Source: Acidimicrobiia bacterium (GTDB lineage Bacteria; Actinomycetota; Acidimicrobiia; Spongiisociales; UBA5794). Taken from it: 64,000 nt of DNA. The stretch lies in assembly GCA_041608535.1 (NCBI GenBank), contig JBFISM010000001.1, positions 30,139-94,138 of the forward strand, read 5' to 3'. This document shows, piece after piece, positions 9,411 to 64,000 of the stretch (positions within the stretch are counted from its first letter, which is position 1; every line of letters begins with the position of its first letter). The notes beneath the pieces were generated by a model that searched no databases, was not told the origin of the DNA, and was given only the letters and a program-made list of their open reading frames with translations. The translations under genes and the position numbers were made by a program.

Positions 9411-10652
9411 ATGGTATCCCACGTGCTGGCACCGGATCGGGTGTTCGACGCAGCCACCGGCACCATGCTCACCGATCATGCAATCGTCATCGATGACGGG
9501 CTCGTGCGTGCCGTAGCACCGGTGGCGGAGGTCGCCGACCGTATCACCCAACCACTCCCACACGTGACGCTGCTGCCGGGTCTCATCGATTCCCACACCC
9601 ATCTGGCAGCACCACTCGATGACGGACACGGCTTTGCGTCCTTGGTGCAGCGCAGCGGCGCCCAAGATGCGCTCATCGGCGTGAAACACGCCGCCGAGAC
9701 CGTCCGCGCGGGCTTCACCACGGTCAGAGACATCGGGACCTGGCGCGCCTTCACCGATGTCGCGCTGCGCGATGCGATCGATGCCGGCTGGGTGGCCGGG
9801 CCGAGAATGCAGTGCGCCGGTGCCTACCTCACGGCGCCGGGTGGCGCCGGCGACATCACCGGTCTCGCCGTCGACGTCGATGCCGTGGTCCCCCGCGAGC
9901 TCCGCTTCGGCGTAGCGAGCGGTGCCGACCAGGTTCGCTCCACCGTCCGCCAGATACTCCGCTACGGCGCCGACTTCATCAAGGTGCTCGCCACCGGCGC
10001 GGTGCTCACCTCGGGTACCCGCCCCGGTGCGCCGGAGTTCACCGCCGCCGAGCTGTCGGCTGCGGTGGAGACGGCCACGGACGCCGGCACATACGTCGCC
10101 GCCCACGCTCACGGCACCGACGGCATCAAGCGGGCGGTGCGTGCCGGGGTCCGCTCCATCGAGCACGGCTCGATGCTCGACGACGAAGCCATCGAGCTCA
10201 TGGTCGATACCGGAACCTATCTCGTGGCCGACCTGTACGACGGGGACTACATACTCGAGGTCGGCCCTGAGCGCGGGTACAGCGACGAGGTGCTCCGCAA
10301 GACGGCAGAGACCACCGACGTGCAGCGCAGCGGCTTCACCAAAGCCGTGCACGCCGGCGTGAAGGTCGCCTTTGGCAGCGACGCCGGCGTGTTTCCCCAC
10401 GGATCACAGGGGCGCCAGTTCGCCTACTACGTCGATCATGGTCTCACCCCGGCCCAGGCGATCCAATCCGCAACGGCATGGGCGGCCGAGCTGCTCGGCT
10501 GGGACGACCGGGTTGGCCGTCTCTCGCCGGGCATGCTCGCCGACGTGATCGGCGTGGTGGGGAATCCTCTGGACGACATTCGTCTGCTGGAGACCGTCAC
10601 CATGGTCATGTGTCGTGGTGAGTGGATCGTCCCGCCAGCGACATCGCTGTGA
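9411..10652 (+). CDS. amidohydrolase family protein (metal-dependent hydrolase)
   Basis: N-terminal HxH metal motif LIDSHTHL, later HAHG and conserved Asp region typical of amidohydrolase superfamily. Confidence 0.8.
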   Translation: MVSHVLAPDRVFDAATGTMLTDHAIVIDDGLVRAVAPVAEVADRITQPLPHVTLLPGLIDSHTHLAAPLDDGHGFASLVQRSGAQDALIGVKHAAETVRAGFTTVRDIGTWRAFTDVALRDAIDAGWVAGPRMQCAGAYLTAPGGAGDITGLAVDVDAVVPRELRFGVASGADQVRSTVRQILRYGADFIKVLATGAVLTSGTRPGAPEFTAAELSAAVETATDAGTYVAAHAHGTDGIKRAVRAGVRSIEHGSMLDDEAIELMVDTGTYLVADLYDGDYILEVGPERGYSDEVLRKTAETTDVQRSGFTKAVHAGVKVAFGSDAGVFPHGSQGRQFAYYVDHGLTPAQAIQSATAWAAELLGWDDRVGRLSPGMLADVIGVVGNPLDDIRLLETVTMVMCRGEWIVPPATSL

Positions 10653-10680
10653 ACCGGGCGCCGGCGATCGCGATGCTCCT

Positions 10681-11475
10681 TCAGACCTCGGTCGCCTCCA
10701 GCTGCGCCCGCGCAAAGGCCGTCCGCATGACGGCCTCCGGATAGGGACCGGCGTTCGCATCGAACGTTCCTGCCCGCAATCCCTCACGACACAGCGCAGC
10801 AACGGCGGTCAACTCCTCGACCTGCGTAGCCACCTCGGCGCGGGTCATCGTGTCTCCGTGACCGGGCACCACCCCCCGGGAACCCATGGCCGCCAGCGCA
10901 GTGGCGGTCTCCCGCCACGCCAGCGGGAACCCGTCACCAAACACCGGTGGAGCACCGTTTTCCAGCAGATCGCCGGCAAACAGCACATCGGCATCGGACA
11001 CGGTGACCACCACGTCGCTGTCGGTGTGTCCCCGACCCAGCCACACCAGCGAGACCACCCTACCCCCGATGTCGATGTCGGCCCGCGGGTCGGCGACGTG
11101 CTGCGGGGGGACGATCACCACCTCCTCGACCACTGCCCGCTCCTCCTCCCCCAACCAGGCGATGGCATCGCGCTTCGCCCGTTCCCCCTCGTGCTCGAGA
11201 TACTCCCGGCACCGCACGTGGCCCCAGATGGCAGACTCCGCGAACTCGGCGTTGCCAAACACGTGATCCCAGTGATAGTGCGTGTTCACGACCCAGCGCA
11301 CCGGCAGCGACGTCACCTGCGCGATCTCGGTGAGGAGCTCGCGGGCCTGTCTCTGCGACTGGCGGGTGTCGACGACGAGTGCACCGTCTTCGCCGAGGAC
11401 CAGCCCCACATTGAGATCGAGCGAAGTGAAGCGACGGCGATAGACGGAGTCGGCGATCTCGTCCCAGACGGTCAT
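10681..11475 (-). CDS. MBL-fold metallo-hydrolase
   Basis: HxHxDH motif NTHYHWDHVFG and downstream His/Asp ligands; start at MTVWDEIADSV (ORF-track upstream is artefact). Confidence 0.8.
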   Translation of the reverse strand: MTVWDEIADSVYRRRFTSLDLNVGLVLGEDGALVVDTRQSQRQARELLTEIAQVTSLPVRWVVNTHYHWDHVFGNAEFAESAIWGHVRCREYLEHEGERAKRDAIAWLGEEERAVVEEVVIVPPQHVADPRADIDIGGRVVSLVWLGRGHTDSDVVVTVSDADVLFAGDLLENGAPPVFGDGFPLAWRETATALAAMGSRGVVPGHGDTMTRAEVATQVEELTAVAALCREGLRAGTFDANAGPYPEAVMRTAFARAQLEATEV

Positions 11476-39070: not shown

Positions 39071-39098
39071 TTGATCAACATCCCCGTTGCGATATAAT
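39071..39098 (+). promoter_or_regulatory. near-consensus housekeeping-type promoter of flp (TTGATC-N16-TATAAT)
   Basis: -35 TTGATC 39071..39076, -10 TATAAT 39093..39098; predicted TSS ~39105. Confidence 0.55.
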
Positions 39099-39100
39099 TG

Positions 39101-39113
39101 CCCCCTAAGGGGG
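39101..39113 (+). other. 5'UTR hairpin CCCCC-TAA-GGGGG overlapping the flp Shine-Dalgarno (GGGGGA)
   Basis: perfect 5-bp G:C stem with 3-nt loop; 3' arm is the SD 8 nt upstream of ATG 39122; possible translational control element. Confidence 0.4.
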
Positions 39114-39121
39114 ACTTAAAC

Positions 39122-39316
39122 ATGGGGGAAACTTTCCAGGGCCTCACGGCCTCAGATCCAACGAACCAGCAGCGCCGTCTCTCGGGGGAGGACGGTGAGG
39201 TCCGAGTCGAGTACGCCCTCGTGGCGGCTGTACTCGCTGCGGTGGCAGTCGGCATGCTCACGATCATGGATCGAGGCGTGCAGGACGTCGTGGAGGCCGT
39301 CAAGCTGCTGTTCTAG
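39122..39316 (+). CDS. flp: Flp family type IVb pilin
   Basis: 64 aa; Flp motif G/EVRVEYALVAAVLAAVAVGMLTI (G-x4-EY-ALx hydrophobic helix); SD GGGGGA; monocistronic with promoter and terminator. Confidence 0.75.
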   Translation: MGETFQGLTASDPTNQQRRLSGEDGEVRVEYALVAAVLAAVAVGMLTIMDRGVQDVVEAVKLLF

Positions 39317-49534: not shown

Positions 49535-49681
49535 ATGTCAGTTCCCGACACCCACGGCGAACGCGGCGCCACCATGGTGGAGTACGCCATCATGCTTGCG
49601 CTCATCGCAACCGTATCCATGGTCGTGATCACCACGATCGGCCAGGATGTGCTCGGCGCCTTCGCCTCCGCGAAGTGGTGA
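49535..49681 (+). CDS. flp: Flp family type IVb pilin (48 aa)
   Basis: canonical Flp prepilin motif ERG/ATMVEYAIMLALIATVSMVVITTIG; too short to appear alone in ORF track (it is the C-terminus of artefactual ORF 48515..49681). Confidence 0.75.
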   Translation: MSVPDTHGERGATMVEYAIMLALIATVSMVVITTIGQDVLGAFASAKW

Positions 49682-49731
49682 GCTGAGGCTCCCCCACCAG
49701 GCCTGTCTGACCTTCAGCCAACCCTCAGCTC
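49680..49731 (+). terminator. inverted repeat GAGCTGAGG ... CCTCAGCTC downstream of flp2 (long loop)
   Basis: 9-bp perfect arms separated by ~34 nt, starting at flp2 stop; weak terminator candidate. Confidence 0.25.
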
Positions 49732-49797
49732 CATGACGCACATTGGCGACACGAGCGCAGCGTGCGTCTGGCCGCAGGTGCGAGGGAGGTCGGGATC

Positions 49798-49980
49798 GTG
49801 GATACTTTTGTCGTTCGCATCTACCCGAGCACCGGTTCCAACCGTCCCGGGCGCATCGAACACGTGACGTCGGGCTCTGTTCTCTATTTCCACAGTCTCG
49901 ATGAGCTGCCTCGCGCCGTCGAGGCGGCGTTGCAGGCATCGGGTAGCTCCCTTCAGACCGGCGCGATGAAGGACCGCTGA
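49798..49980 (+). CDS. small hypothetical protein (60 aa) between flp2 and STAND regulator
   Basis: RBS GAGGGAGG 8 nt before GTG 49798; MDTFVVRIYPSTGSNRPGRIEHVTSGSVLYFHSLDELPRAVEAALQA... balanced composition, locally lower GC. Confidence 0.45.
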   Translation: MDTFVVRIYPSTGSNRPGRIEHVTSGSVLYFHSLDELPRAVEAALQASGSSLQTGAMKDR

Positions 49981-50007
49981 ACGAAGAGCGACGCGGGACG
50001 GATAGCA

Positions 50008-53000
50008 TTGCTGCCGTCTCCGATGAGCCATCCAATCGCAACGCCGTTGACCATCGTGGCGAGACCCCGCCTCGAGGAGCTGCACCGCCTTCTCGGCGAG
50101 CGACGGCTCTGCCTGATCTCTGCCGGTGCCGGCTACGGCAAGACGACCCTGCTCGGGGTATGGCGCGAGCAGGCGCCGACGGGCTTTGTGACGTGCACAG
50201 AGGGGCACGGCAACCTCGGTGTGTTCGCCACCACGGTGACGAACGCGCTGCGCGCCTGGATTCCCGGTCTGCAACCGCGAACGACAGGGGTCGAGTCGAT
50301 GAGCGGCCCGGCGGTGGCGTCCGAGCTGATCGCCGCAGCAGCGCCGCTGATGCAACGTCCGATCCGTCTCTTCTTCGACGATGTCGATGAACTTCGCACG
50401 GGTGAGTCGGCTCGCTTTCTCCAATCTCTGGTGCTGCAGGCTCCGCAGAGCCTCGGGATCGTGCTGGCAGGCCGTAGCGAACCTCCTGTACGAATCGCCA
50501 GACTCCGCGGTCGCGGCCAGCTGCTCGAGCTGACGGCTGCCGACCTTCGCTTCACCTTCGACGAGACGACTCGGTTCGTTGCCGCCACGGCTCCGGAGGT
50601 GGCCGGCTACGTCGACGAGATCCATGCAACGACCGGGGGCTGGCCCGCGGCGGTCCGGCTCACCGTCGAGGCGCTCCGCGGCAGCCCAGTCGACGATCGA
50701 CTCCGCGTGCTGGAACGGGCGCGCCGACCCGGGGGTACGTTGTTCGCCTATCTGGCCGATGAGGTCATCGACAGCGAGCCTCCTCCGGCCAGAGAGATGC
50801 TGCGCACGCTGGCGGCGATCGGGGCGGCTCCCGATGCGCTCGTGCTCGACGTGTGTGGAGGAGAAGAGACTCTGCTGGCGGGACTGCAGCGGCGCGGATT
50901 GTGTGTGGCCAGCGGACCAGACATCAGCGTGCCGCCACTCGTGGCGGACTTTCTCGCCTCAGACGCTCCCCTCGAGGCGACAGAGCGGTTGGGTGCGCTC
51001 GAACGTGCCGCCCACTGGTTCTGCGATCACGGAATGCACCGCCGGGCGCTGGAGCTCGCCACCCGACGGGGGGCAACCGAGCTGGCCGCTGCCATCTGTC
51101 TCGAGCACGGGGAGCAGATCGCCGACTCGGGAGGAGCCGCAGCTGTGCTGGCAGCGCTGCGGACGGTCGACGAGAAAGACCTCACACCGGCGCTCTTGCG
51201 ACTGAAAGCCAACGTGCTGCACACCACGGGCGATTGGGATGCGGCCCTGGCGATCTATGAGGGATTGGACGGCGGCGCCGCCAGCATCCCGGCCGACCTG
51301 GCCTGGCGCATGGGTCTGATCCACCTCCTGCGAGGAGATCCCCACACTGCGACTGAGGTGTACCGGCGTGCGGACATCACGGCCCAGGACGCCGATACCG
51401 CCATCCTGCTCGGCTGGTGGGCGTCGGCCGCCTGGATCACTGCGGAGACCGCTCACTGCCGTTCGTTGGCAAATGAATCATTGGCAACAGCTCAGCGGGT
51501 TGGCGATGACCGCGCCCTGGCGGTGGCGCACACGGTGCTGGCGATGGTTGCAGCTGTGGACGGAGACCGCCACGGCAACGAGGCGCACTACATCGCTGCT
51601 CTGGATCACGCCAAACGGGCCGACGACGTCTTGCAGCAGGTGCGAATCCATGTCAATCGCGCCAGCCACCATCTGGAGGAGGGGCACTATCTCGAATCGA
51701 TCGCGGAGAGCGACCAGGCGCTGACGCTCGCCGAGCTCGGCGACATCGTGCCATTCAAGGCAATGGCGCTACTCAATCGCGGTCAAGCGCTGTCGCGGCT
51801 GGGGCGGTTGGAGGCGGCAGACGCCGATTTCGCCGCAGCCCACAGCGAGTGGGAACGAACCCGTTCCCGGCATGTCGCCTATGCATTGAATGCATTTGGC
51901 GAGAGTCGAACCGCACGGGGAGTCCGGTCGCTGGCGCGATCCGCTCACGAGCAGGCGCTTGCCATCGCGGAGGCGAACTCAGACACACAGGCGCTCATCC
52001 CGGCGCTCGTCGGTCTGGCCAAGGTCACCATCGACGACGATCCGGCGACGGCGCGGCTGCTGGCGAAACGAGCCGCCGACCACGGCCCGAGCCTCGGAAC
52101 GGCCGCGGCGCTGCTTGCCCTGGGGTGGGCCGAGCTGGAGCTGGGCAACACCGAGGCGGCGATCGACAACGCTCGCCGTGCCGGTGACATCGCCAGAGCA
52201 CGGCGGGACCGCGCCGCTACCGCAGAAGCGCTGGAATTGGAAGCGTTTGCTGCGCCCGATGAGGCCAAGCCCCTGCTCGACGAGGCGCTGGAGTTGTGGG
52301 GCAGCCTCGACGACCCCCTCGGGCACGCCAAGTCGCGTCTCGCCCGGTGTCGGCTGCTCCACGCTGACATCGAGGAGCTCGATGAGCTGGCGGCTCTGTT
52401 CGGCAGGCTCGGTGCCCGACATCTCGCCGCCGAGACGAGGGCGATGGTCGAGCGTCTCGGTGCGGAACGACGCAACGCCGTCGTCATCGAAACCCTCGGG
52501 GGCTTCCGCGTTGTCACCGGCGGCGAGCCGGTTCCCGCTTCGGCGTGGCAGTCGAGGAAGGCAAGGGATTTGTGCAAGCTGCTGGTGACCCGGCGGGGCA
52601 AACCGGTCCATCGGGAGGTGCTGCTCGAAGAGCTGTGGCCCGGCGAGGACGGGCAGAAAACGGCGAACCGACTCTCTGTCGCCCTGTCGACGCTCCGCAA
52701 CGTCTTCGACCCCGAGAGGACTCACGATCCCGACCACTACATCGCAGCAGACAAGACATCCGTCGCGCTCGTGCTCGAAGCACTCGAGATCGACGTGGAG
52801 CGATTCATCTCCGCCGCTCGTGACATCCTGGAACACCCGGACGCATCCGAGGCGCGGCTGGAACGCATCGAAGCCGCCTATCGCGGAGATTTCCTCGAGG
52901 AGGATCCGTACGCCGACTGGGCGGTATCGCTGCGGGAAGAGGCGCGAAGCCTGTATCTGCGGCTGGCCCGCAGGCTTGCCGAGCTCACCAGCGAGCGTGG

Positions 53001-53229
53001 CGACCACGATGCCGCAGCCCGCTATCACCTCCGGGTTTTGGAACGTGACCCGTACGACGAGCCTGCCCATCTCGGATTGGTGAGCGCCATGGCCGCCACG
53101 GGCCGGCATGGGGAGGCGCGCCGTCTCTACCGAGCGTATTGCGAGCGGATGGCCGATCTCGACGTCGACCCGCATCCATTCCCCGCCGAGGGACACGCCG
53201 CCACCCAGCCGGCATTCAGGAAAACCTAA
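50008..53229 (+). CDS. large STAND NTPase-TPR regulator with C-terminal SARP (OmpR-type wHTH + BTAD) domain
   Basis: Walker A LISAGAGYGKTTLL near N-terminus; central Ala/Leu-rich TPR-like repeats; C-terminus (about 52480..53229) has wHTH FRVVTGGEPV...LCKLLVTRRGKPVHREVLLEELWP and BTAD EAAYRGDFLEEDPYADWAVSLREEARSLYLRLARRLAEL...ARRLYRAYCERMADLDVDP; 1073 aa. Confidence 0.8.
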   Translation: MLPSPMSHPIATPLTIVARPRLEELHRLLGERRLCLISAGAGYGKTTLLGVWREQAPTGFVTCTEGHGNLGVFATTVTNALRAWIPGLQPRTTGVESMSGPAVASELIAAAAPLMQRPIRLFFDDVDELRTGESARFLQSLVLQAPQSLGIVLAGRSEPPVRIARLRGRGQLLELTAADLRFTFDETTRFVAATAPEVAGYVDEIHATTGGWPAAVRLTVEALRGSPVDDRLRVLERARRPGGTLFAYLADEVIDSEPPPAREMLRTLAAIGAAPDALVLDVCGGEETLLAGLQRRGLCVASGPDISVPPLVADFLASDAPLEATERLGALERAAHWFCDHGMHRRALELATRRGATELAAAICLEHGEQIADSGGAAAVLAALRTVDEKDLTPALLRLKANVLHTTGDWDAALAIYEGLDGGAASIPADLAWRMGLIHLLRGDPHTATEVYRRADITAQDADTAILLGWWASAAWITAETAHCRSLANESLATAQRVGDDRALAVAHTVLAMVAAVDGDRHGNEAHYIAALDHAKRADDVLQQVRIHVNRASHHLEEGHYLESIAESDQALTLAELGDIVPFKAMALLNRGQALSRLGRLEAADADFAAAHSEWERTRSRHVAYALNAFGESRTARGVRSLARSAHEQALAIAEANSDTQALIPALVGLAKVTIDDDPATARLLAKRAADHGPSLGTAAALLALGWAELELGNTEAAIDNARRAGDIARARRDRAATAEALELEAFAAPDEAKPLLDEALELWGSLDDPLGHAKSRLARCRLLHADIEELDELAALFGRLGARHLAAETRAMVERLGAERRNAVVIETLGGFRVVTGGEPVPASAWQSRKARDLCKLLVTRRGKPVHREVLLEELWPGEDGQKTANRLSVALSTLRNVFDPERTHDPDHYIAADKTSVALVLEALEIDVERFISAARDILEHPDASEARLERIEAAYRGDFLEEDPYADWAVSLREEARSLYLRLARRLAELTSERGDHDAAARYHLRVLERDPYDEPAHLGLVSAMAATGRHGEARRLYRAYCERMADLDVDPHPFPAEGHAATQPAFRKT

Positions 53230-57549: not shown

Positions 57550-58701
57550 TCAGCCGACGAGCTGCACCGTCTCGGAGTATCCGATGTCGTCGACCGCACC
57601 CGAGCCGTTGAGCTTCACCACCATCAAATCCGCTTCCACGGGCGAGGGGAGAAACCGCTGGGCGACCATACCGTCCCCGGCAAGCGTGAGCTGCACCTCC
57701 GCAACGAGGTTGCCGTCTCGGTACAGCCACACAAACGCATCCTCCTCCACATCGACGAGGGTCACATCTGTGACGGTCACCAGACCCGTGTCTCCGAAAT
57801 CCTCGAAGTCGAGCACCAGGGTGCAGTCCGTCGTGATGTCATCGGCGTCCTCGGCATAGCTGGGTGCATCGTTGGCGCTCGCACCCGTGGGGCACGGTCC
57901 CCCGAAATCGTCCGGATCGGATGCGTCACCGTCCTCAGAGATGATGAGCACGCCTCCCTGGCCGGGGAGGAACAGATCGTTGTCTCCACCCGAGCAGTTG
58001 GACGCCGGCCCTCCGCCACAGGTGGCATCGAACACCATCGGACCGAAGGCCGTGTTCGATCCAATGGCCACCTCGCCGCTGATGTGGTCGCCGCTGATGC
58101 CATATCCGGCAGAGACCTCACTCGGCTGATCACCAGCGGGGATTCCCTCGAAATCGATCACGGCGCGACGTTTCAGCGAGATGGCGGTCGCCGACACGTC
58201 ACTGGTTTCGAAGCCGAGGACACGAGCGAAGAGGTGTTCCACCGGGTTGCCATATGCCGCGGAGCGGCGGGTGGTCACTTGCACGGCATTGAGGGGAAGA
58301 CCACTGGCCACGAATGTTCTCGTCGACGTGTCCCAGTTCCCCACCACGACGTCGGGCGCTTTGGTCAGGGGACCAGCTCCGTCATCGTTGCGATCGGCGT
58401 AGTCGATGGCGATCACCTCGGCCACCGTTGCAATTGGCAGCCCGCGCGCTGCGGCCGTCGAAGCAGCGTCTGCCGCCGTCTGCAGCTCGGTCCGCACCAC
58501 ATACAGGTGCCCGACATCAACCGCCAGTGCCGCAAAGCCGAAGATCACGAAGAGGAGCAGGCCCACGAAGATCGCCGTTGTCCCCGATTCCATTTCGCCT
58601 GATGCGACACGCCCCCGATGGAAGGAGCCGGTGGGCACCTTTGTCGAAAGAGGTGTGGCGTCGTCCGACGACCGCACCGGCAGCAGCTGCGTCTCCCCCA
58701 T
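57550..58701 (-). CDS. TadE/TadG-like pilus assembly protein with large C-terminal extension (paralog 1)
   Basis: Tad N-terminal domain TTAIFVGLLLFVIFGFAALAVDVGHLYVVRTELQTAADAAS; start ATG 58701 with GGGGGACGGGG SD; C-terminal domain with DATCGGGPASNCSGGD motif. Confidence 0.7.
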   Translation of the reverse strand: MGETQLLPVRSSDDATPLSTKVPTGSFHRGRVASGEMESGTTAIFVGLLLFVIFGFAALAVDVGHLYVVRTELQTAADAASTAAARGLPIATVAEVIAIDYADRNDDGAGPLTKAPDVVVGNWDTSTRTFVASGLPLNAVQVTTRRSAAYGNPVEHLFARVLGFETSDVSATAISLKRRAVIDFEGIPAGDQPSEVSAGYGISGDHISGEVAIGSNTAFGPMVFDATCGGGPASNCSGGDNDLFLPGQGGVLIISEDGDASDPDDFGGPCPTGASANDAPSYAEDADDITTDCTLVLDFEDFGDTGLVTVTDVTLVDVEEDAFVWLYRDGNLVAEVQLTLAGDGMVAQRFLPSPVEADLMVVKLNGSGAVDDIGYSETVQLVG

Positions 58702-58996
58702 GGTCCCCGTCCCCCAATGGCAGCAAATGAATGGTTGCGCCTCGCAGGGACCACGTAGCTGTGAGGTGCTGTATAGGTCTGAAGACGCATCATAGAGGCC
58801 AATGCGATGTACGACCGACGGGAGAGCGTTCACGCTGGGTTTAGCGGTGTGTCCGTCGTACGAGCGAGGTCAGAAAGACGCTTGGGACGGAAGAGATTCA
58901 CTTCCAACAAGGCACTGGGTCCGGCGTGTACCGGACCCAGTGGCCAGGGAGGTGACATGCGGCCGTGCGGTGACGCCCTCGTCTACCGCTACTGCC

Positions 58997-60097
58997 TCAC
59001 CCGACGAGGGAGACCGTCTCGGAATATCCAATGTCGTCGATGGCGCCCGATCCGTTCAGCTTGACCACCATGATGTCGCCGTCGACCGGCGTGGGCAGCA
59101 ACCGCTTGGCCGCCATGCCGTCACCCGCCAGGGTCAGTTGCACTTCGGCCACGAGGTTGCCGTTCCGGTAGATCCAGACAAAGGCGTCTTCCTCGACGTC
59201 GACAAGCGTGACATCCGTGATCGTGACAACTCCCTCGCCGAAGTTCCGGAAGTCGAGCACCAGCGTGCACAGCGTGGTCACGTCGCTGGGATTGGCGACC
59301 CATGCCGGAGCATCGTTGGCGGCAGCCCCTGTCGGGCAGGGCGTCGGTCCCGCATAGTCGTCCGGGTCGCTGGAATCGCCATCCTCAGAGATGATCAGCA
59401 CCCCGCCCTGGGTCGGGACGAAGAGGTCGCTGTCACCGCCTGTGCAGTTGGAGGCCGGCCCGCCGCCGCAGGTTGCGTCGAACACCATGGGACCGAATCC
59501 CGTGTTGGACGAGATGTCGACGGTACCGGGAATCGGGTCGCCGGAGATCCCGTATCCGCTCGATACCGAATAGGGCTGATCACCTGCCGGAATACCTTCG
59601 AAGTCGATGACGGCGTTCTGCCTCAGAGCAATCGATGCAGCTCGCACATCGGTGGTCGGGTTGCCCAGGATCCCGGCGAAGAGGTTGTCCACCGGATTGC
59701 CGTATGCGACCGAACGGTTCGTGATCACCTGCACCGCGTTGAAGGGGAGCCCGTTCTCGGTGTATGTGCGGGTGGACGAATCCCAGTAGCCCACCGAGAT
59801 GTCAGCGGCGTCCGTGATGTTGCCGTTTCCGAACGAGTTCTCGTTGTTGGCGTAATCGAGTGCGATCGCCTCGGCGGCGATCTCGAGCGGGAGCCCCCGA
59901 GCCCCTGCGGTCGCGGCAGCGTCGGCCGCCGTCTGCAGCTCGGCTCGCACCATGTAGATCTGGCCGACGTCGACCGCCAAGGCGGCAAACCCAAAGATCA
60001 CGGTGAGCAGGAGACCGACGAAGATAGCCGACACTCCACTCTCCGAGCGGAGACGCTCGTCCCCCGTTGCCGGCTCCACCACGTCCAGCTCGTTCAT
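58997..60097 (-). CDS. TadE/TadG-like pilus assembly protein with large C-terminal extension (paralog 2)
   Basis: SAIFVGLLLTVIFGFAALAVDVGQIYMVRAELQTAADAAA; 70-85 percent aa identity to paralog 1 along whole length; SD GGGGG 7 nt before ATG 60097. Confidence 0.7.
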   Translation of the reverse strand: MNELDVVEPATGDERLRSESGVSAIFVGLLLTVIFGFAALAVDVGQIYMVRAELQTAADAAATAGARGLPLEIAAEAIALDYANNENSFGNGNITDAADISVGYWDSSTRTYTENGLPFNAVQVITNRSVAYGNPVDNLFAGILGNPTTDVRAASIALRQNAVIDFEGIPAGDQPYSVSSGYGISGDPIPGTVDISSNTGFGPMVFDATCGGGPASNCTGGDSDLFVPTQGGVLIISEDGDSSDPDDYAGPTPCPTGAAANDAPAWVANPSDVTTLCTLVLDFRNFGEGVVTITDVTLVDVEEDAFVWIYRNGNLVAEVQLTLAGDGMAAKRLLPTPVDGDIMVVKLNGSGAIDDIGYSETVSLVG

Positions 60098-60494
60098 GTT
60101 GCACCCCCTGGCCGGGAGGTCCCATCCCCGAGGTCCGGTTCGTCACCGGAGCGGTCTTCGGATTCCCCCGCTTGGCTCGTATTCCCCTTTGCACACCATC
60201 GGACAGCCGAGATGAGCCGCCCGAGTCTCGATGGGACAGAACAGAAGGTCGTTGGCCCGCAACCGCGGCCGCGTGGGCGCAGCGATCAGCGCGACGTGAT
60301 TCCCCCAAATTCCATTCCCCAGCTCGTCGATTCGCCGAACCGGCGATTGCGGCCGTACGCCGCGTGCTCGACTCGCCTTGTGTGTTCGTAGGTTCCGTCA
60401 GTTGTGAGTTGTCGTGGCCCCGCCGGCCTCCTGCACGAAACGGCGTCGGTGCGGTTCCACGTCTATACGACACATGGCCGTGCCGCTTCTTACA

Positions 60495-61478
60495 TCATTC
60501 GGGGAACATGACCTCGTCGATGAGGCTTTCCTCGACGTGACCGCCCTTGGGCTCGAACCTGTAGTGCGCAAAGTCCTTCTCGAACTCGAGATCGAGACCC
60601 TCGGGTCCGTGGCGGTACTTCTCGAAGCTCAGCACGGTCCGCCGTTTGTGCTCCTCTGCCTTCAAGACGTCGAAGGAGGAGTGCAGCTTGGACACGGCGG
60701 TGAACTTGCTGTTGAGCAGGAGCAAGAGATCGGCTTCGTACCCGACGCCGGATGCGCCGTTGAGGTGGTGCATCCGCAGCCGGCGGATGTTGAGCCCGGA
60801 CGCATCCGAAGCGACGATGGCGAGCACGGCGACATCGGCGCTGAGTGCGATCGACTTGAGCCCCTGAGCGATCTTGGCGACGCGGCTCAGGTCCCCCGTG
60901 GCCGGGTGCGGCACTTTCTGGAGGAAGTCCACGATGAGCAGGCTGCCGGGGCCGGCGTGCTGCGCCGTCTCGGTCAGCGCCTGCAGGTCGGTACCGGTAC
61001 GGCTGGCGTTGATGAACCACAGCCGCTCTCCGTAGTCGCTGATCCTGCTGTACGCGGCACGGAGCAACAGGTTCCGGCTCAACTCGTCCTCGAGCGATGC
61101 CTCACCCAGAGCGATGCTGCGGATCGCTGCCCGCGTGGGACCGGAGGCGCCGGGCGCTCCCTCCACGAGGTCGCCCACCTCGAGCAACAGCAACCGGCTG
61201 AGCAGCGTCAGGTGATCGTGGTCGTAACACGCATAGACGACGTTCGTGCCCTGCTCTGCGGCGTTACGGGCCCATTGCATCGACATCACGGTCTTTCCCT
61301 GGCCGGGAGCGCCACCGAGGATGGTCAAGTCCCTGGGTCGCAGTCCACCTTCGAGCACCGTGTCGAGCGGCTCGAATCCGGTCGGAACGGTATGCACCCC
61401 GCGCGCCTCCTCGTCGACCGACGCCAGGACGGCACTCGCCGACCGGAACTGTGGAGCGTTGGGGTGGACTTCGAGCAT
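60495..61478 (-). CDS. RecA-superfamily (KaiC/DnaB-C/RadA-like) P-loop ATPase encoded 19 nt downstream of tadC
   Basis: Walker A GGAPGQGKTVMS, Walker B LLIVDFLQKV, RecA-like fold features; ATG 61478 with AAAGG SD immediately after tadC stop (61498); alternative GTG 61514 would overlap tadC. Confidence 0.7.
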   Translation of the reverse strand: MLEVHPNAPQFRSASAVLASVDEEARGVHTVPTGFEPLDTVLEGGLRPRDLTILGGAPGQGKTVMSMQWARNAAEQGTNVVYACYDHDHLTLLSRLLLLEVGDLVEGAPGASGPTRAAIRSIALGEASLEDELSRNLLLRAAYSRISDYGERLWFINASRTGTDLQALTETAQHAGPGSLLIVDFLQKVPHPATGDLSRVAKIAQGLKSIALSADVAVLAIVASDASGLNIRRLRMHHLNGASGVGYEADLLLLLNSKFTAVSKLHSSFDVLKAEEHKRRTVLSFEKYRHGPEGLDLEFEKDFAHYRFEPKGGHVEESLIDEVMFPE

Positions 61479-61497
61479 GGGGGTGCGACCTTTCGGC

Positions 61498-62430
61498 TCA
61501 GGGGACGAGGGCACCGCCGAGATCGCGGAAGATCCGGATCACGGCAGGACCGAGCAGGATGATGAACATGGCGGGGAAGATGCACATGGCGAGCGGGAAG
61601 ATGAGCTTGACCGGCAGCTTCATCGCCTGCTCTTCGGCACGCTGGAAGCGCTTGTCCCTGAGCTCGTCGGATTGCACCCGCAGCACGCCGGCCACCGGAA
61701 TGCCGTACTGCTCGGATTGCACGACAGCGAGGATGAAGCTGTCGAGATCCGACACCGCGGTACGGCTGGACAGATTGCGGAGAGCCTGCGGGCGAGGGAT
61801 ACCGAGCTGGATCTCGCGCAGCGTGCGCTGCAGCTCGTCGGCAAAAGGTCCCTCACCGGAGCGGGCCACTCTCGCTAGTGCAGCCTCGAAACCCAGCCCG
61901 GCGTCCACCGACATCCGGATCTGGTCGAGGGTGTCTGGAAGTTCGAGCTGGATGCTGTGCTGACGTGCCTTACCCTTTTGTGCGATCAACAGATCGGGCA
62001 GAAAGAAACCCAACGCTGTTACACCGAGCACAATCAGGGGCTGCAGTCGTGGTACCGACCCAAAGGGTCCCAACAGCCCGAAGGCGAGGCCAGCAGCACC
62101 CAGCCCGAATTTGGTGACCAGCATCCGCTCCACCGATGTGGTGTCGGCGTTGCCGGCCAAAACGAGATTCTTCCGCAGGGAGTCCGTCCACCCCGCCGGA
62201 GTGAGGCTCCGCAGGCGCACGCCCATGGCGCGCAGCATCGGGACACCGACACGCTTGCCGATGCCCTGCTGGAGCACCAGCGACCGGGCGTCGGTGGTTT
62301 CCGGCTTGCCCAGGATGCGCTCCCGGCTGGCGGCGCTTGCCGCGCTCACGCGGGTCGAAGCGACGGACCAGTACAAGACCGGGAGCGAGACGGAGACTGC
62401 GACCGCCGCAAGGATGATCTGGATTGGCAT
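61498..62430 (-). CDS. tadC: type II secretion system F family protein (TadC-like)
   Basis: 310 aa, N-terminal TM, cytoplasmic T2SSF domain, C-terminal TM pair; 9 nt after upstream tadB-like gene. Confidence 0.75.
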   Translation of the reverse strand: MPIQIILAAVAVSVSLPVLYWSVASTRVSAASAASRERILGKPETTDARSLVLQQGIGKRVGVPMLRAMGVRLRSLTPAGWTDSLRKNLVLAGNADTTSVERMLVTKFGLGAAGLAFGLLGPFGSVPRLQPLIVLGVTALGFFLPDLLIAQKGKARQHSIQLELPDTLDQIRMSVDAGLGFEAALARVARSGEGPFADELQRTLREIQLGIPRPQALRNLSSRTAVSDLDSFILAVVQSEQYGIPVAGVLRVQSDELRDKRFQRAEEQAMKLPVKLIFPLAMCIFPAMFIILLGPAVIRIFRDLGGALVP

Positions 62431-62439
62431 GGCGTCCTC

Positions 62440-64000
62440 CTAGTACTCCAACTTGGTGATTTTTCTCATCCACAGGACTCCGACCACCATGCCGAGCAAA
62501 CCGGCGGCGACCATGATCTGGCCCATGGTCGACTCGAACAGCTCGAGGAGGTAGTCCGGGTTGATCATCATGAGCGCTCCCACCAAGAACACGGGAAGCG
62601 ATCCCAGAATCACCCCCGAGAAGCGGCCCTCGGCGCTGAGCGACTTGACCCGACGCCGGATACGGTTCCGGTCACGGACGGTGTCGGTGACCGAGTCGAG
62701 GATCTCGCCGAGATCGCCACCGACCTCACGATGAATCTCGATCGCCTCGACCACCCACCGGAAGTCCTCCGATTGGAGGCGATGTGCCATGGCCTTCAGC
62801 GCCTCGTCCGAGTCCCGTCCGAGATGCGTCTCCAGCTTCACCCGGCGGAACTCCTCCCCTGCGGGATCGGCGATCTCGTTGGCGACAGTGTCGACGGCTT
62901 GCATCAGACCAAAACCGGAGCGGAGGCTGCCGGCCATGAGCTGAAGCGCATCTGGGAGCTGGGCGGCGAAGGACGAACGGCGTTTCGACGCTTTCTGGCT
63001 GAGGAAGGCGTAGATACCCAGGACCGTGAAGACGGCAAGTCCGAGCCCGGCGAGCCCGCTGATGGTGGCGAAGCCCACCGCCAAGGCGCCGAGCATGGCG
63101 GCGCCGGTGAGCACCACGAACTCTGCGGGACGCCACGACAGACCGGCCGCTTCAAGCTTGGTGTTGATGACACCGCGCCGCTCGCCCTTCTCGAGGCTGC
63201 GATCGGCGAACAACGTGGCTTGCTCGGCGAGCGACGACAGGGTCTTGCCCTTCGTCTCGCCGAACTTCTTCGACACCGCCTTGGCGACGAGCTGCACGTT
63301 CCTCGGCTGGCCGATACCGGAGAGGAACACGATCGTCGCCAGCGAGACGAACATCATGCCGAGTCCCGTGTAGAGCAGCCCCGGTCGGTCGAACAACCCG
63401 AGCTGCACTTCGAAGCCCTCACGCAACGCCGGAGCCACCGTGGCCACGGGGGCGACGACCGTGGTGGGGGTCACCGAAACCACGCTTGTCGGGGGTACCG
63501 TCTCGGTCACCGGAGGGGGTTCCGGGTATTCCACGATCCCGACGAGCGACGTCGACTGACCGTTGGCGCTGGCGACCACCTCGAGCTCCGTTGCGTCGAA
63601 CGACGCCGACTCGAACGTCAGCGAGAATTGGTTGACGATGGCCGTGGCCAGCTCATTGAGAACGCCCGTGAGCGCTTCCGGGTCGTCGGCGGACACCACC
63701 CGGCTCTCCCCGGCATCGGGGTGAGCTGCTTCGGCGAGCGCTCGCATCGCCACCGGATCGTTCTCCGTTCCTTTCAGCTCGATGGCGTGATAGGCCACAT
63801 CCGTCACCACGAGCCGCTCCTCCAGCTCGATGAGCGTGAGTGCGCTGGCGGTATCGGCGCCGTCGGAGAGCAACACCACGGTATTGCGGGTGTCCTCGAG
63901 CCCGGCGAACTGATCGAGCCCGAGCGCCAGACCGTCGTACAACGCCGTGTTGCCTCCGGTAGAGATGCCCCGGATGGCCTCGGCCAGCTCGGCCGCATCG
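62440..64000 (-). CDS. tadB: VWA domain - TadB-like (T2SSF) fusion protein, 5' end beyond window
   Basis: C-terminal 310 aa T2SSF membrane domain; upstream in same frame, open to window edge: ...GGNTALYDGLALGLDQFAGLEDTRNTVVLLSDGADT (VWA C-terminal half) then Thr/Val/Pro linker; ORF-track start 63942 is a TTG in a frame with no stop up to base 64000. Confidence 0.65.
   Translation of the reverse strand, partial: DAAELAEAIRGISTGGNTALYDGLALGLDQFAGLEDTRNTVVLLSDGADTASALTLIELEERLVVTDVAYHAIELKGTENDPVAMRALAEAAHPDAGESRVVSADDPEALTGVLNELATAIVNQFSLTFESASFDATELEVVASANGQSTSLVGIVEYPEPPPVTETVPPTSVVSVTPTTVVAPVATVAPALREGFEVQLGLFDRPGLLYTGLGMMFVSLATIVFLSGIGQPRNVQLVAKAVSKKFGETKGKTLSSLAEQATLFADRSLEKGERRGVINTKLEAAGLSWRPAEFVVLTGAAMLGALAVGFATISGLAGLGLAVFTVLGIYAFLSQKASKRRSSFAAQLPDALQLMAGSLRSGFGLMQAVDTVANEIADPAGEEFRRVKLETHLGRDSDEALKAMAHRLQSEDFRWVVEAIEIHREVGGDLGEILDSVTDTVRDRNRIRRRVKSLSAEGRFSGVILGSLPVFLVGALMMINPDYLLELFESTMGQIMVAAGLLGMVVGVLWMRKITKLEY

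Follow-up and report, generated by a model that had tools for sequence, protein, structure and literature searches.

A small DnaB C-terminal-like ATPase encoded directly after tadC in an Acidimicrobiia-type tad pilus operon

We identified five minus-strand genes at one end of the window (the whole 64-kb stretch of DNA that was analysed), with positions, order and domains that agree with those described in an earlier note on this DNA: a truncated VWA::TadB fusion gene, tadC, a gene for a 327-aa RecA-fold ATPase and, after an intergenic gap, two tandem genes for TadG-like proteins (Table 1). The genes are tightly spaced, with tadC starting 9 nt past the tadB stop codon and the ATG of the ATPase gene lying 19 nt past the tadC stop codon, with GAAAGG upstream. 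The reading frame of tadB (from 62440 to beyond 64000) runs off the window, leaving 519 aa visible, which align at 45% identity with residues 146-652 of a 652-aa VWA::T2SSF protein from a related locus (L003), both domains of which were confirmed by Pfam. Because the alignment starts at residue 146 of this relative, the VWA-TadB fusion that had been claimed is real, and about 145 of its codons lie beyond position 64000. In the fusion protein, a Pro/Thr-rich linker connects an extracytoplasmic VWA domain to the T2SSF platform domain. Thus, the two T2SSF platform proteins characteristic of Tad systems, TadB and TadC, are encoded by adjacent genes, and the window TadC shares 34-60% identity with the TadC proteins of related loci.

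Table 1. Coordinates of the tad-related features in the window
Feature	Position	Strand	Domain evidence or remark
VWA::TadB fusion, 3' two-thirds	62440..64000	-	Pfam T2SSF, 68 bits, residues 352-477
tadC, T2SSF platform protein, 310 aa	61498-62430	-	Pfam T2SSF, 84 bits
Stand-alone DnaB C-terminal-like (SF4 helicase fold) P-loop ATPase, 327 aa	60495-61478	-	Pfam DnaB_C, KaiC, AAA_25
Intergenic gap of 397 nt separating the ATPase and first TadG-like genes	60098..60494	-	Candidate internal promoter region
TadG-like minor pilin/tip protein 1, 366 aa	58997-60097	-	Pfam Tad + Tad_C
TadG-like protein 2, tandem paralogue of protein 1, 383 aa	57550-58701	-	Pfam Tad + Tad_C; MAG gene call
Orphan flp pilin, 48 aa, containing GATMVEYAIMLALIA	49535-49681	+	Pfam Flp_Fap, 32.9 bits (cut-off 32.2)

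The two TadG-like proteins, which represent the TadE/F/G-type minor pilins of a Tad system, are 72% identical, and a DNA repeat with a spacing of about 1447 nt spans the pair. This bears out the tandem TadE/G-like paralogs of the earlier note, and the pair of minor-pilin-like proteins arose by a recent tandem duplication. The length of protein 2 is counted from the ATG of the MAG annotation; the longest open reading frame extends to 58833. In protein 1, the N-terminal Tad/Tad_C module is followed by a C-terminal beta-sandwich of ~200 aa resembling carbohydrate-binding modules, which suggests that the TadG-like proteins are glycan-binding tip adhesins. Neither Rfam matches (at E<=1) nor sigma-70-like promoter sites were found in the intergenic gaps, and the 397-nt gap contains one weak terminator-like hairpin (60264-60247), which is not above the shuffled expectation.

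Two flp genes had been proposed, 8 and 20 kb away from the locus, of which the nearer one stands. It passes the Pfam Flp_Fap cut-off, in agreement with a precomputed Pfam match on the MAG contig, and its product contains GATMVEY, corresponding to the G/xxxxEY processing motif of Flp pilins. This orphan gene lies 8 kb from the tad locus on the opposite strand and adjoins a gene for a BTAD/TPR regulator (50008-53229). The second candidate, at 39098-39316 (+), matched an ad hoc HMM only, without Pfam support, and was rejected. The in-operon flp pilins of the source genome are expected, from the organization of related operons, beyond the end of the window.

As judged from sequence and gene order, the ATPase gene is an additional, lineage-specific member of the tad operon and encodes a single-domain homologue of the DnaB C-terminal domain. 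Across 45 loci, the median gap between tadC and the ATPase gene is 13 nt, with 40 of the gaps being 40 nt or shorter and several being start/stop overlaps (-4/-1), which imply translational coupling. In a large and deep Acidimicrobiia clade, tadC lies directly upstream of the ATPase gene in every member with visible context (42/42); the one exception is found elsewhere in the tree (L056). This adjacency persists across 37-55% protein identity while the genes downstream of the ATPase gene vary between genomes: a flp gene directly follows in L003 and L004, and TadG genes follow in the window. Other arrangements include an ATPase gene convergent with tadC (L087, L130, L145 and L162), lying on the opposite strand with flp genes on either side (L048) or placed directly after cpaF (L050). 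The earlier suggestion that the RecA-fold gene belongs with tadC is therefore supported.

The ATPase is optional, and not a general feature of related tad loci. Among 64 metagenomic loci with a related TadC and sufficient downstream DNA, the ATPase gene follows tadC in eight, is convergent in three and is absent in 53. Members of the family are also found outside tad loci. In a Limnocylindria (Chloroflexota) clade, the gene sits among housekeeping genes, in the order FtsH - M20 peptidase - ATPase - pyrophosphatase, and tad core genes are missing from its surroundings; the 'CpaE' matches 6-10 kb downstream, considered as a hidden tad link, turned out to be response regulators, with a ComM/YifB-like gene after them. 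In another clade, the neighbouring genes are unrelated, and one member overlaps a PRK-type kinase gene. Furthermore, the acidic C-terminal tail of the ATPase is equally conserved in the tad-linked and non-linked clades, which rules it out as a pilus-specific docking peptide and speaks for a partner without a specific link to the pilus. A strict association between the ATPase and the VWA::TadB fusion was rejected as well: in a biased sample, long and short TadB proteins number 24 and 5, respectively, in loci with the ATPase and 17 and 20 in loci without it, so that the fusion is enriched but not exclusive.

These contexts outside tad, the tail that is conserved whatever the gene context and the 53 tad loci without the gene all favour a function unrelated to the pilus, for example as a RecA-type ATPase with a general role in signalling, repair or proteostasis, with the gene riding at the end of the tad operon by inherited synteny. 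We nevertheless consider this explanation unlikely, because the adjacency to tadC has been kept over considerable protein divergence despite changing flanks, the overlaps with tadC imply translational coupling, and several genomes have tad genes on both sides of the ATPase gene. In addition, independent rearrangements in other lineages leave the gene inside or beside tad loci, which inertia alone can hardly explain.

The protein had been labelled a KaiC/DnaB-C-like RecA-fold ATPase. The C-terminal RecA domain of DnaB (SF4; PF03796) is indeed its best match in both sequence and fold, with Pfam scores of 63 bits for DnaB_C and 40 bits for KaiC, and a further match to AAA_25, whereas the KaiC/FlaH-like part of the label is too loose. 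The KaiC (PF06745) match, at 39.9 bits, is above the cut-off but covers residues 43-101 only (model positions 1-60 of 231), not the full-length KaiC RecA domain, and the sequence does not place the protein in the FlaH family. The recognizable motifs are Walker A (GGAPGQGKT), H1a (YDHD), Walker B (LIVDFLQK), YEAD and the Lys/Arg-finger motif EKYRHGP. A motif map against a bona fide DnaB, from a genome that also carries the ATPase family, indicates that H1 (Walker A), the acidic H1a, H2 (VDYLQ in DnaB), the H4-like YEAD and KxRxGP are kept, whereas H3 (SQLSR) is lost, with VAxD in its place. Within the family, K62, D184, E248 and D250 are invariant, and K287 and R289 nearly so. Given the intact nucleotide-binding and trans-acting Lys/Arg-finger motifs, the protein probably forms a ring or oligomer that hydrolyses ATP.

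Unlike DnaB, the ATPase has no N-terminal domain (PF00772); ~40 residues precede the RecA core, with a helix at the place of the DnaB linker helix, and a helical insert of ~50 residues is found at residues ~105-165. The protein falls far below every DnaB equivalog cut-off, scoring 56 bits against the cut-off of 385 for TIGR00665 (NCBIfam), and of the DnaB domains it matches DnaB_C alone. This score, together with the presence of a separate full-length DnaB in a genome carrying the ATPase family (L088), rules out a role as the replicative helicase. The score for the sms (RadA) model is 27 bits against a cut-off of 403, and the protein has neither the zinc finger found at the N-terminus of RadA/Sms nor the Lon-like domain at its C-terminus. 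An origin from a defence system or a phage was also rejected, with only a 16-bit match in PADLOC and only generic DnaB-like helicase families in PHROGs. The family comprises about 350 clusters at 50% identity, for which no dedicated curated model or paper was found, and the current automatic annotation of its genes, 'replicative DNA helicase', is misleading.

The relationship with DnaB raises the question of a DNA motor, in other words a DnaB- or RadA-like helicase or ssDNA translocase through which the Tad pilus would be connected with the uptake or processing of DNA, as in Tad-dependent natural transformation. In DnaB, the sensor glutamine of H3 couples ATP to DNA binding. The replacement of SQLSR, with this glutamine, by VAxD, along with the lack of an N-terminal domain, a zinc finger or any other DNA-handling module in the ATPase, makes such a motor improbable. 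Moreover, comEC, comEA and dprA were not seen in the loci examined, and the Micrococcus luteus paper has no mention of such an ATPase.

The earlier note further described the locus as lacking a CpaF-type motor, with the RecA-fold ATPase in place of VirB11/CpaF; neither part is supported. Searches of the whole 64-kb window with ad hoc HMMs yielded no homologues of CpaF, CpaE, RcpC or TadE. However, the window stops inside tadB, and the absence of CpaF is almost certainly an artefact of this cut. In all related loci whose sequence reaches 3.4 kb or more upstream of tadC (29/29), (VWA)tadB has a T2SSE/CpaF gene immediately before it, resulting in the order cpaF-(VWA)tadB-tadC-ATPase, and no TadC-ATPase locus without CpaF was seen. 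CpaF and the ATPase thus co-occur in the operons of the relatives, the full order of which is flp (one to four copies), tadE, tadG, rcpC, cpaE/tadZ (the ParA-like ATPase of Tad systems), cpaF, (VWA)tadB, tadC and the ATPase gene. Exact-protein look-ups returned no record for TadC and, for the ATPase and TadG-like protein 1, MAG or read-assembly contigs only. As all these public contigs break inside tadB, we infer CpaF in the source genome from the relatives.

Region 57550-64000 is thus well supported as the distal part of a tad/flp pilus operon of the monoderm, Acidimicrobiia type. It is likewise well supported, by comparison with the related loci, that flp genes, tadE, tadG, rcpC, cpaE/tadZ, the gene for the CpaF/TadA motor and the start of VWA::tadB lie beyond the window end, and the pilus of the source genome almost certainly has a normal CpaF as its motor, as in the relatives. 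A variant filament system without a VirB11/CpaF-type ATPase, driven or co-driven by the RecA-fold ATPase with T2SSF platform proteins, as first proposed, would fit the lack of a CpaF homologue throughout the window and the tight coupling of the RecA-fold gene to tadC, but is barely credible given that the window terminates within tadB and that cpaF is immediately upstream of tadB in all 29 informative loci. According to the earlier note, a standard CpaF combined with an ATPase gene that is an unrelated unit, not conserved beside tadC, would make this an ordinary tad locus; the first half applies, by extension from the relatives, and the second does not. Overall, the locus is probably best explained as the end of an ordinary tad operon with a CpaF motor and an extra, DnaB-C-like accessory ATPase.

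The Tad/Flp (type IVc) loci of monoderm Actinomycetota, such as those of M. tuberculosis and Micrococcus luteus, have the order tadZ-tadA-tadB-tadC-flp-tadE-tadF/G. The window shares with them the TadB and TadC platform proteins, TadG-like minor pilins and an Flp pilin, and its relatives additionally share CpaE/TadZ, CpaF/TadA, RcpC and TadE, with the secretin being absent. By contrast, the order in the group of the window is flp-tadE-tadG-rcpC-cpaE-cpaF-tadB-tadC, TadB has a VWA domain at its N-terminus, the extra ATPase gene follows tadC, and the two TadG-like genes with the CBM-like domain are located downstream, not upstream.

Tad pili are thought to use a single bifunctional ATPase, CpaF, whereas in the archaeal relatives of Tad a second RecA-type ATPase (ArlH or KaiC-like) controls the motor. 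As with ArlH/FlaH and the KaiC-family ATPases, one RecA-superfamily ATPase is encoded in the related loci in an operon with a T2SSF platform protein (the ArlJ/TadC homologue) and a PilB/VirB11-type motor, although the Tad-linked ATPase is not orthologous to them. In archaea, RecA-superfamily ATPases and vWA proteins are encoded in T4P loci and are T4P-associated regulators (PMC4858521), and ArlH regulates ArlI (PMC12488501). The papers on Chloroflexota archaella concern true ArlH and have no relation to the Tad-linked family, and a full-text literature search found no paper that connects bacterial Tad loci with an ATPase of the DnaB-like or KaiC-like kind.

By analogy with these archaeal systems, the best reading is that the protein would serve the Tad machine of certain lineages as an optional ring ATPase with an accessory or regulatory role. 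We tentatively propose that it might be located at the cytoplasmic face of the machine and modulate CpaF or the TadB/TadC platform, in a role functionally analogous to that of ArlH (FlaH) on ArlI/ArlJ and of the KaiC-family ATPases at archaeal type IV pilus loci. It is conceivable, if somewhat doubtful, that Acidimicrobiia-type Tad pili independently recruited a DnaB-derived ring ATPase that docks on and controls the CpaF/TadB/TadC complex. Such control could take the form of, for instance, an extension/retraction switch or assembly gating.

To conclude, the conserved extra gene after tadC across a whole class of Actinomycetota encodes an undescribed small DnaB-helicase-like ATPase, and this family indicates that a helicase domain can take on roles beyond DNA metabolism. 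Should the ATPase act as a DNA motor after all, Tad pili would be linked to DNA uptake in uncultured Actinomycetota. If instead, as in the accessory reading that we favour, a ring ATPase controls CpaF/TadB/TadC, it would give bacteria an equivalent, though not an orthologue, of the archaellum ArlH-ArlI pair and be a concrete candidate for the switching of Tad pili between extension and retraction. Thus, a DnaB-derived ATPase, operon-fused to tadC across an actinobacterial class, may represent a convergent bacterial solution to motor control.

The locus at 57550-64000 is overall an ordinary monoderm Tad operon, viewed through a truncated window. Its five minus-strand genes agree in coordinates and domains with those listed in the earlier note, including the proposed fusion of a VWA domain to the platform gene tadB: the visible part of TadB matches a relative's 652-aa protein (Pfam VWA and T2SSF) at 45% identity, starting at residue 146 and reaching its C-terminus, and the VWA::TadB fusion is thus real, with ~145 codons lying past the window. 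The ATG of the RecA-fold ATPase gene, preceded by GAAAGG, lies 19 nt past the tadC stop, and a 397-nt gap separates the ATPase gene from the TadG-like pair.

Features of the window and of related loci in which the ATPase gene has other neighbours
Feature	Position	Strand	Description
Candidate pilin ORF	39098-39316	+	72 aa
Orphan flp	49535-49681	+	48 aa
Orphan flp + regulator	49535-53229	+	opposite strand to tad locus, 8 kb away
TadG-like gene 2	57550-58701	-	Pfam Tad + Tad_C; CBM/discoidin-like C-terminal half at 57550-58150
TadG-like gene 1	58997-60097	-	Pfam Tad + Tad_C; CBM/discoidin-like C-terminal half at 58997-59600
ATPase	60495-61478	-	327 aa; Pfam DnaB_C 63 bits (43-318), KaiC 40 bits (43-101 only)
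tadC	61498-62430	-	T2SSF 84 bits; start 9 nt past preceding stop
VWA::tadB, 3' part	62440->64000	-	open frame leaving window; T2SSF domain
Limnocylindria block (L051-L086)	ATPase at about 10001-10990		DEAD/DEAH helicase (divergent)-FtsB-like-FtsH-M20 peptidase-ATPase-inorganic pyrophosphatase-LigT/HAD-TrpB-like-prephenate dehydrogenase-NfeD-SPFH
Region of distant family member, L005	9060-11074		4-nt overlap with stop of PRK-type gene
Region of distant family member, L006	6979-8993		4-nt overlap with stop of PRK-type gene

Homologues of the ATPase form a compact family of ~327-aa proteins in Acidimicrobiia/Actinomycetota MAGs; a search through GTDB species, each represented by one genome, yielded at least 578 relatives, of which the best 80 loci were examined. 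Neighbour-joining of the family places 42 loci in which tadC is followed by the ATPase in one large, deep Acidimicrobiia clade whose members share 37-55% identity with the query, with a single nested exception, L056, where the ATPase follows a histidine kinase/response-regulator pair. The distance from tadC stop to ATPase start has a median of 13 nt and is at most 40 nt in 40 of 45 loci, with several overlaps of -4 or -1, and the adjacency is kept while the genes downstream vary among genomes. Directly 3' of the ATPase lies a flp gene (MVEYG...) in two loci (L003 and L004) and two TadG genes in the window, which places the ATPase inside the locus. The tie between the RecA-fold gene and tadC drawn in the earlier note is thereby supported, and these arrangements show the ATPase to be a member of the operon. 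Elsewhere, the ATPase is found directly after cpaF and ahead of tadE-tadG (L050), on the opposite strand between flp genes (L048), convergent with tadC (L130, L145 and L162), or, in L087, as the sole plus-strand gene, flanked by flp-RR-HK and tadC...tadE. Next to several of these tad loci (L017, L049, L056 and L087), a GerE/LuxR response regulator and a HisKA_3 histidine kinase, the latter with GAF in L087, are found repeatedly; this recurrence, and the position of the L056 ATPase directly after such a pair instead of tadC, are a hint of a regulatory link.

For the ATPase, AF2 gives a confident model with a pLDDT of 89, profile searches of PDB sequences and of PHROGs are in agreement, and the profile alignment to a bona fide 479-aa DnaB reaches 99.1% probability. 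This DnaB comes from L088, a genome that encodes both a true DnaB and a family member after tadC, and served as the reference for the motif map. Walker A (GGxPGxGKT, K62 invariant), Walker B/H2 (VDYLQ; D184, Q187 and K188 invariant) and the Lys/Arg-finger segment KxRxGP (K287, R289) are retained, whereas SLEM of H1a is replaced by Y(E/D)HD, SQLSR of H3 by VAxD, and IEQDAD of H4 by YEAD (E248 and D250 invariant). In contrast to DnaB, the ATPase lacks the DnaB N-terminal domain, and the family has a helical insert of its own, ~50 residues long (roughly 105-165). The fold and intact catalytic motifs are thus established; retention of the trans-acting finger implies an oligomeric, hydrolysing ATPase, probably ring-shaped, and the missing H3 sensor motif speaks against a conventional DNA helicase. 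Members carry the public names "replicative DNA helicase" or "DnaB-like helicase C-terminal domain-containing protein." The KaiC-like label of the earlier note is imprecise: the DnaB_C match scores higher and spans far more of the protein than the KaiC match. Scores against NCBIfam equivalog models fall far under the cut-offs (DnaB 56/385, FlaH 19.7/194, sms 27/403), and an exhaustive profile search returned 350 cluster representatives at E<=1e-30 versus 43,742 at 1e-10; by these profile comparisons, the family is small and well separated. In all clades and any genomic context, the last ~12 residues form an acidic-hydrophobic tail, E-x-L-[IV]-D-[DE]-x-h-h-x-[DE]-COOH (EESLIDEVMFPE in the window ATPase, modelled with low confidence), which looks like a docking peptide.

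The reverse test covered 80 metagenomic loci retrieved by a TadC profile (36-62% identity): the ATPase follows tadC in 8, is convergent in 3 and is absent from 53 with at least 300 nt downstream, the other 16 being too short to judge. In a Limnocylindria (Chloroflexota) clade, the ATPase gene sits in a conserved housekeeping block; CpaE matches near it were rejected, being actually response regulators. At 3-5 kb downstream, on the other strand, one Limnocylindria sub-clade (L057, L068, L069 and L082; L076 with TadG alone) has TadE/TadG-like genes inserted. Another clade has unrelated neighbours, and one member overlaps a PRK-type kinase gene. A more distant member (42% identity, 357 aa) overlaps the stop of a PRK-type gene (phosphoribulokinase/uridine kinase family) by 4 nt in L005 and L006, with no tad genes nearby. 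Given the 53 loci without it and the non-tad clades, the ATPase is an optional accessory in a subset of tad loci and not a core component. The same loci, together with the housekeeping block and the clade with unrelated neighbours, oppose a dedicated pilus role, as would be expected if the function were unrelated to the pilus and the gene were kept by synteny, an explanation that we regard as unlikely.

Our tentative proposal, one possibility among several, is that the ATPase would act on the Tad machine as an accessory or regulator. The nearest analogue in function is ArlH, an ATPase of the RecA superfamily that is encoded alongside ArlI, the motor, and ArlJ, a T2SSF homologue, and that is said to control ArlI (PMC12488501). 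More widely, archaeal type IV pilus loci have been found to have KaiC-family ATPases and vWA proteins linked to them (PMC4858521); notably, the bacterial locus likewise combines a VWA domain with a RecA-type ATPase. That the ATPase is instead a DNA motor for Tad-dependent DNA uptake appears improbable, even though transformation of Micrococcus luteus requires Tad pili (PMC4322843).

The TadG-like paralogues (72% mutual identity; DNA repeat at about 1447-nt spacing) each combine an N-terminal Tad/Tad_C module with a beta-sandwich at the C-terminus, ~200 residues long, that has no Pfam match; the AF2 model has a confident pLDDT of 91. The sandwich, with the conserved features F-D-A-T-C…C-S-G-G-D-x-D-L-F and L-x-G-S-G-A (shared by P0119-P0160, proteins with the same domain), is shared with many ~335-aa proteins that have no Tad module, which marks it as an unannotated mobile domain. 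A putative role of the pair as glycan-binding tip adhesins is plausible. In most relatives, tadG is located upstream, with tadE and rcpC on either side; placement after the ATPase is a peculiarity of the window lineage.

Of the two distant flp genes in the earlier note, the orphan flp scores above the Pfam cut-off; it lies just upstream of the gene for a 1073-aa regulator (weak N-terminal AAA-type NTPase match, TPR repeats, C-terminal Trans_reg_C and BTAD), and the two may form a pilin-plus-regulator module. The other, with a Flp-like hydrophobic core (…GEVRVEYALVAAVLA…), reaches 25 bits with an ad hoc Flp HMM, does not match Pfam Flp_Fap and is a candidate pilin gene.

No homologues of CpaF, CpaE, RcpC or TadE were found within the 64-kb window. 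Gene maps of relatives, made with precomputed Pfam annotations and with HMMs built from one complete locus, both show a recurrent one-strand order, flp (1-4 copies)-tadE-tadG-rcpC-cpaE/tadZ-cpaF-(VWA)tadB-tadC-ATPase, and cpaF lies directly upstream of tadB in 29/29 TadC-ATPase loci for which 3.4 kb or more of upstream sequence is available. Since the window ends inside the operon and relatives carry cpaF, the reported absence of CpaF and pilin is best explained by the window edge, and a filament system without CpaF, as first read, is highly improbable. Judging from relatives, the main pilins and motor are to be expected in the roughly 9 kb that follow position 64000. Public contigs with an identical ATPase or TadG protein all break inside tadB, and the break inside VWA::tadB is common to every independent assembly (the window, two NCBI MAG contigs and Logan contigs). 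In relatives, tad loci frequently come in pairs, in tandem or close together (L017, L119, L120 and L147), and a paralogous tad repeat may therefore cause these breaks.

Neither Pfam nor NCBIfam has a dedicated model for the tad-linked ATPase, and full-text literature searches found no publication on it. The unusual feature is a conserved DnaB-C-like ATPase fused into the tad operon in one actinobacterial class.
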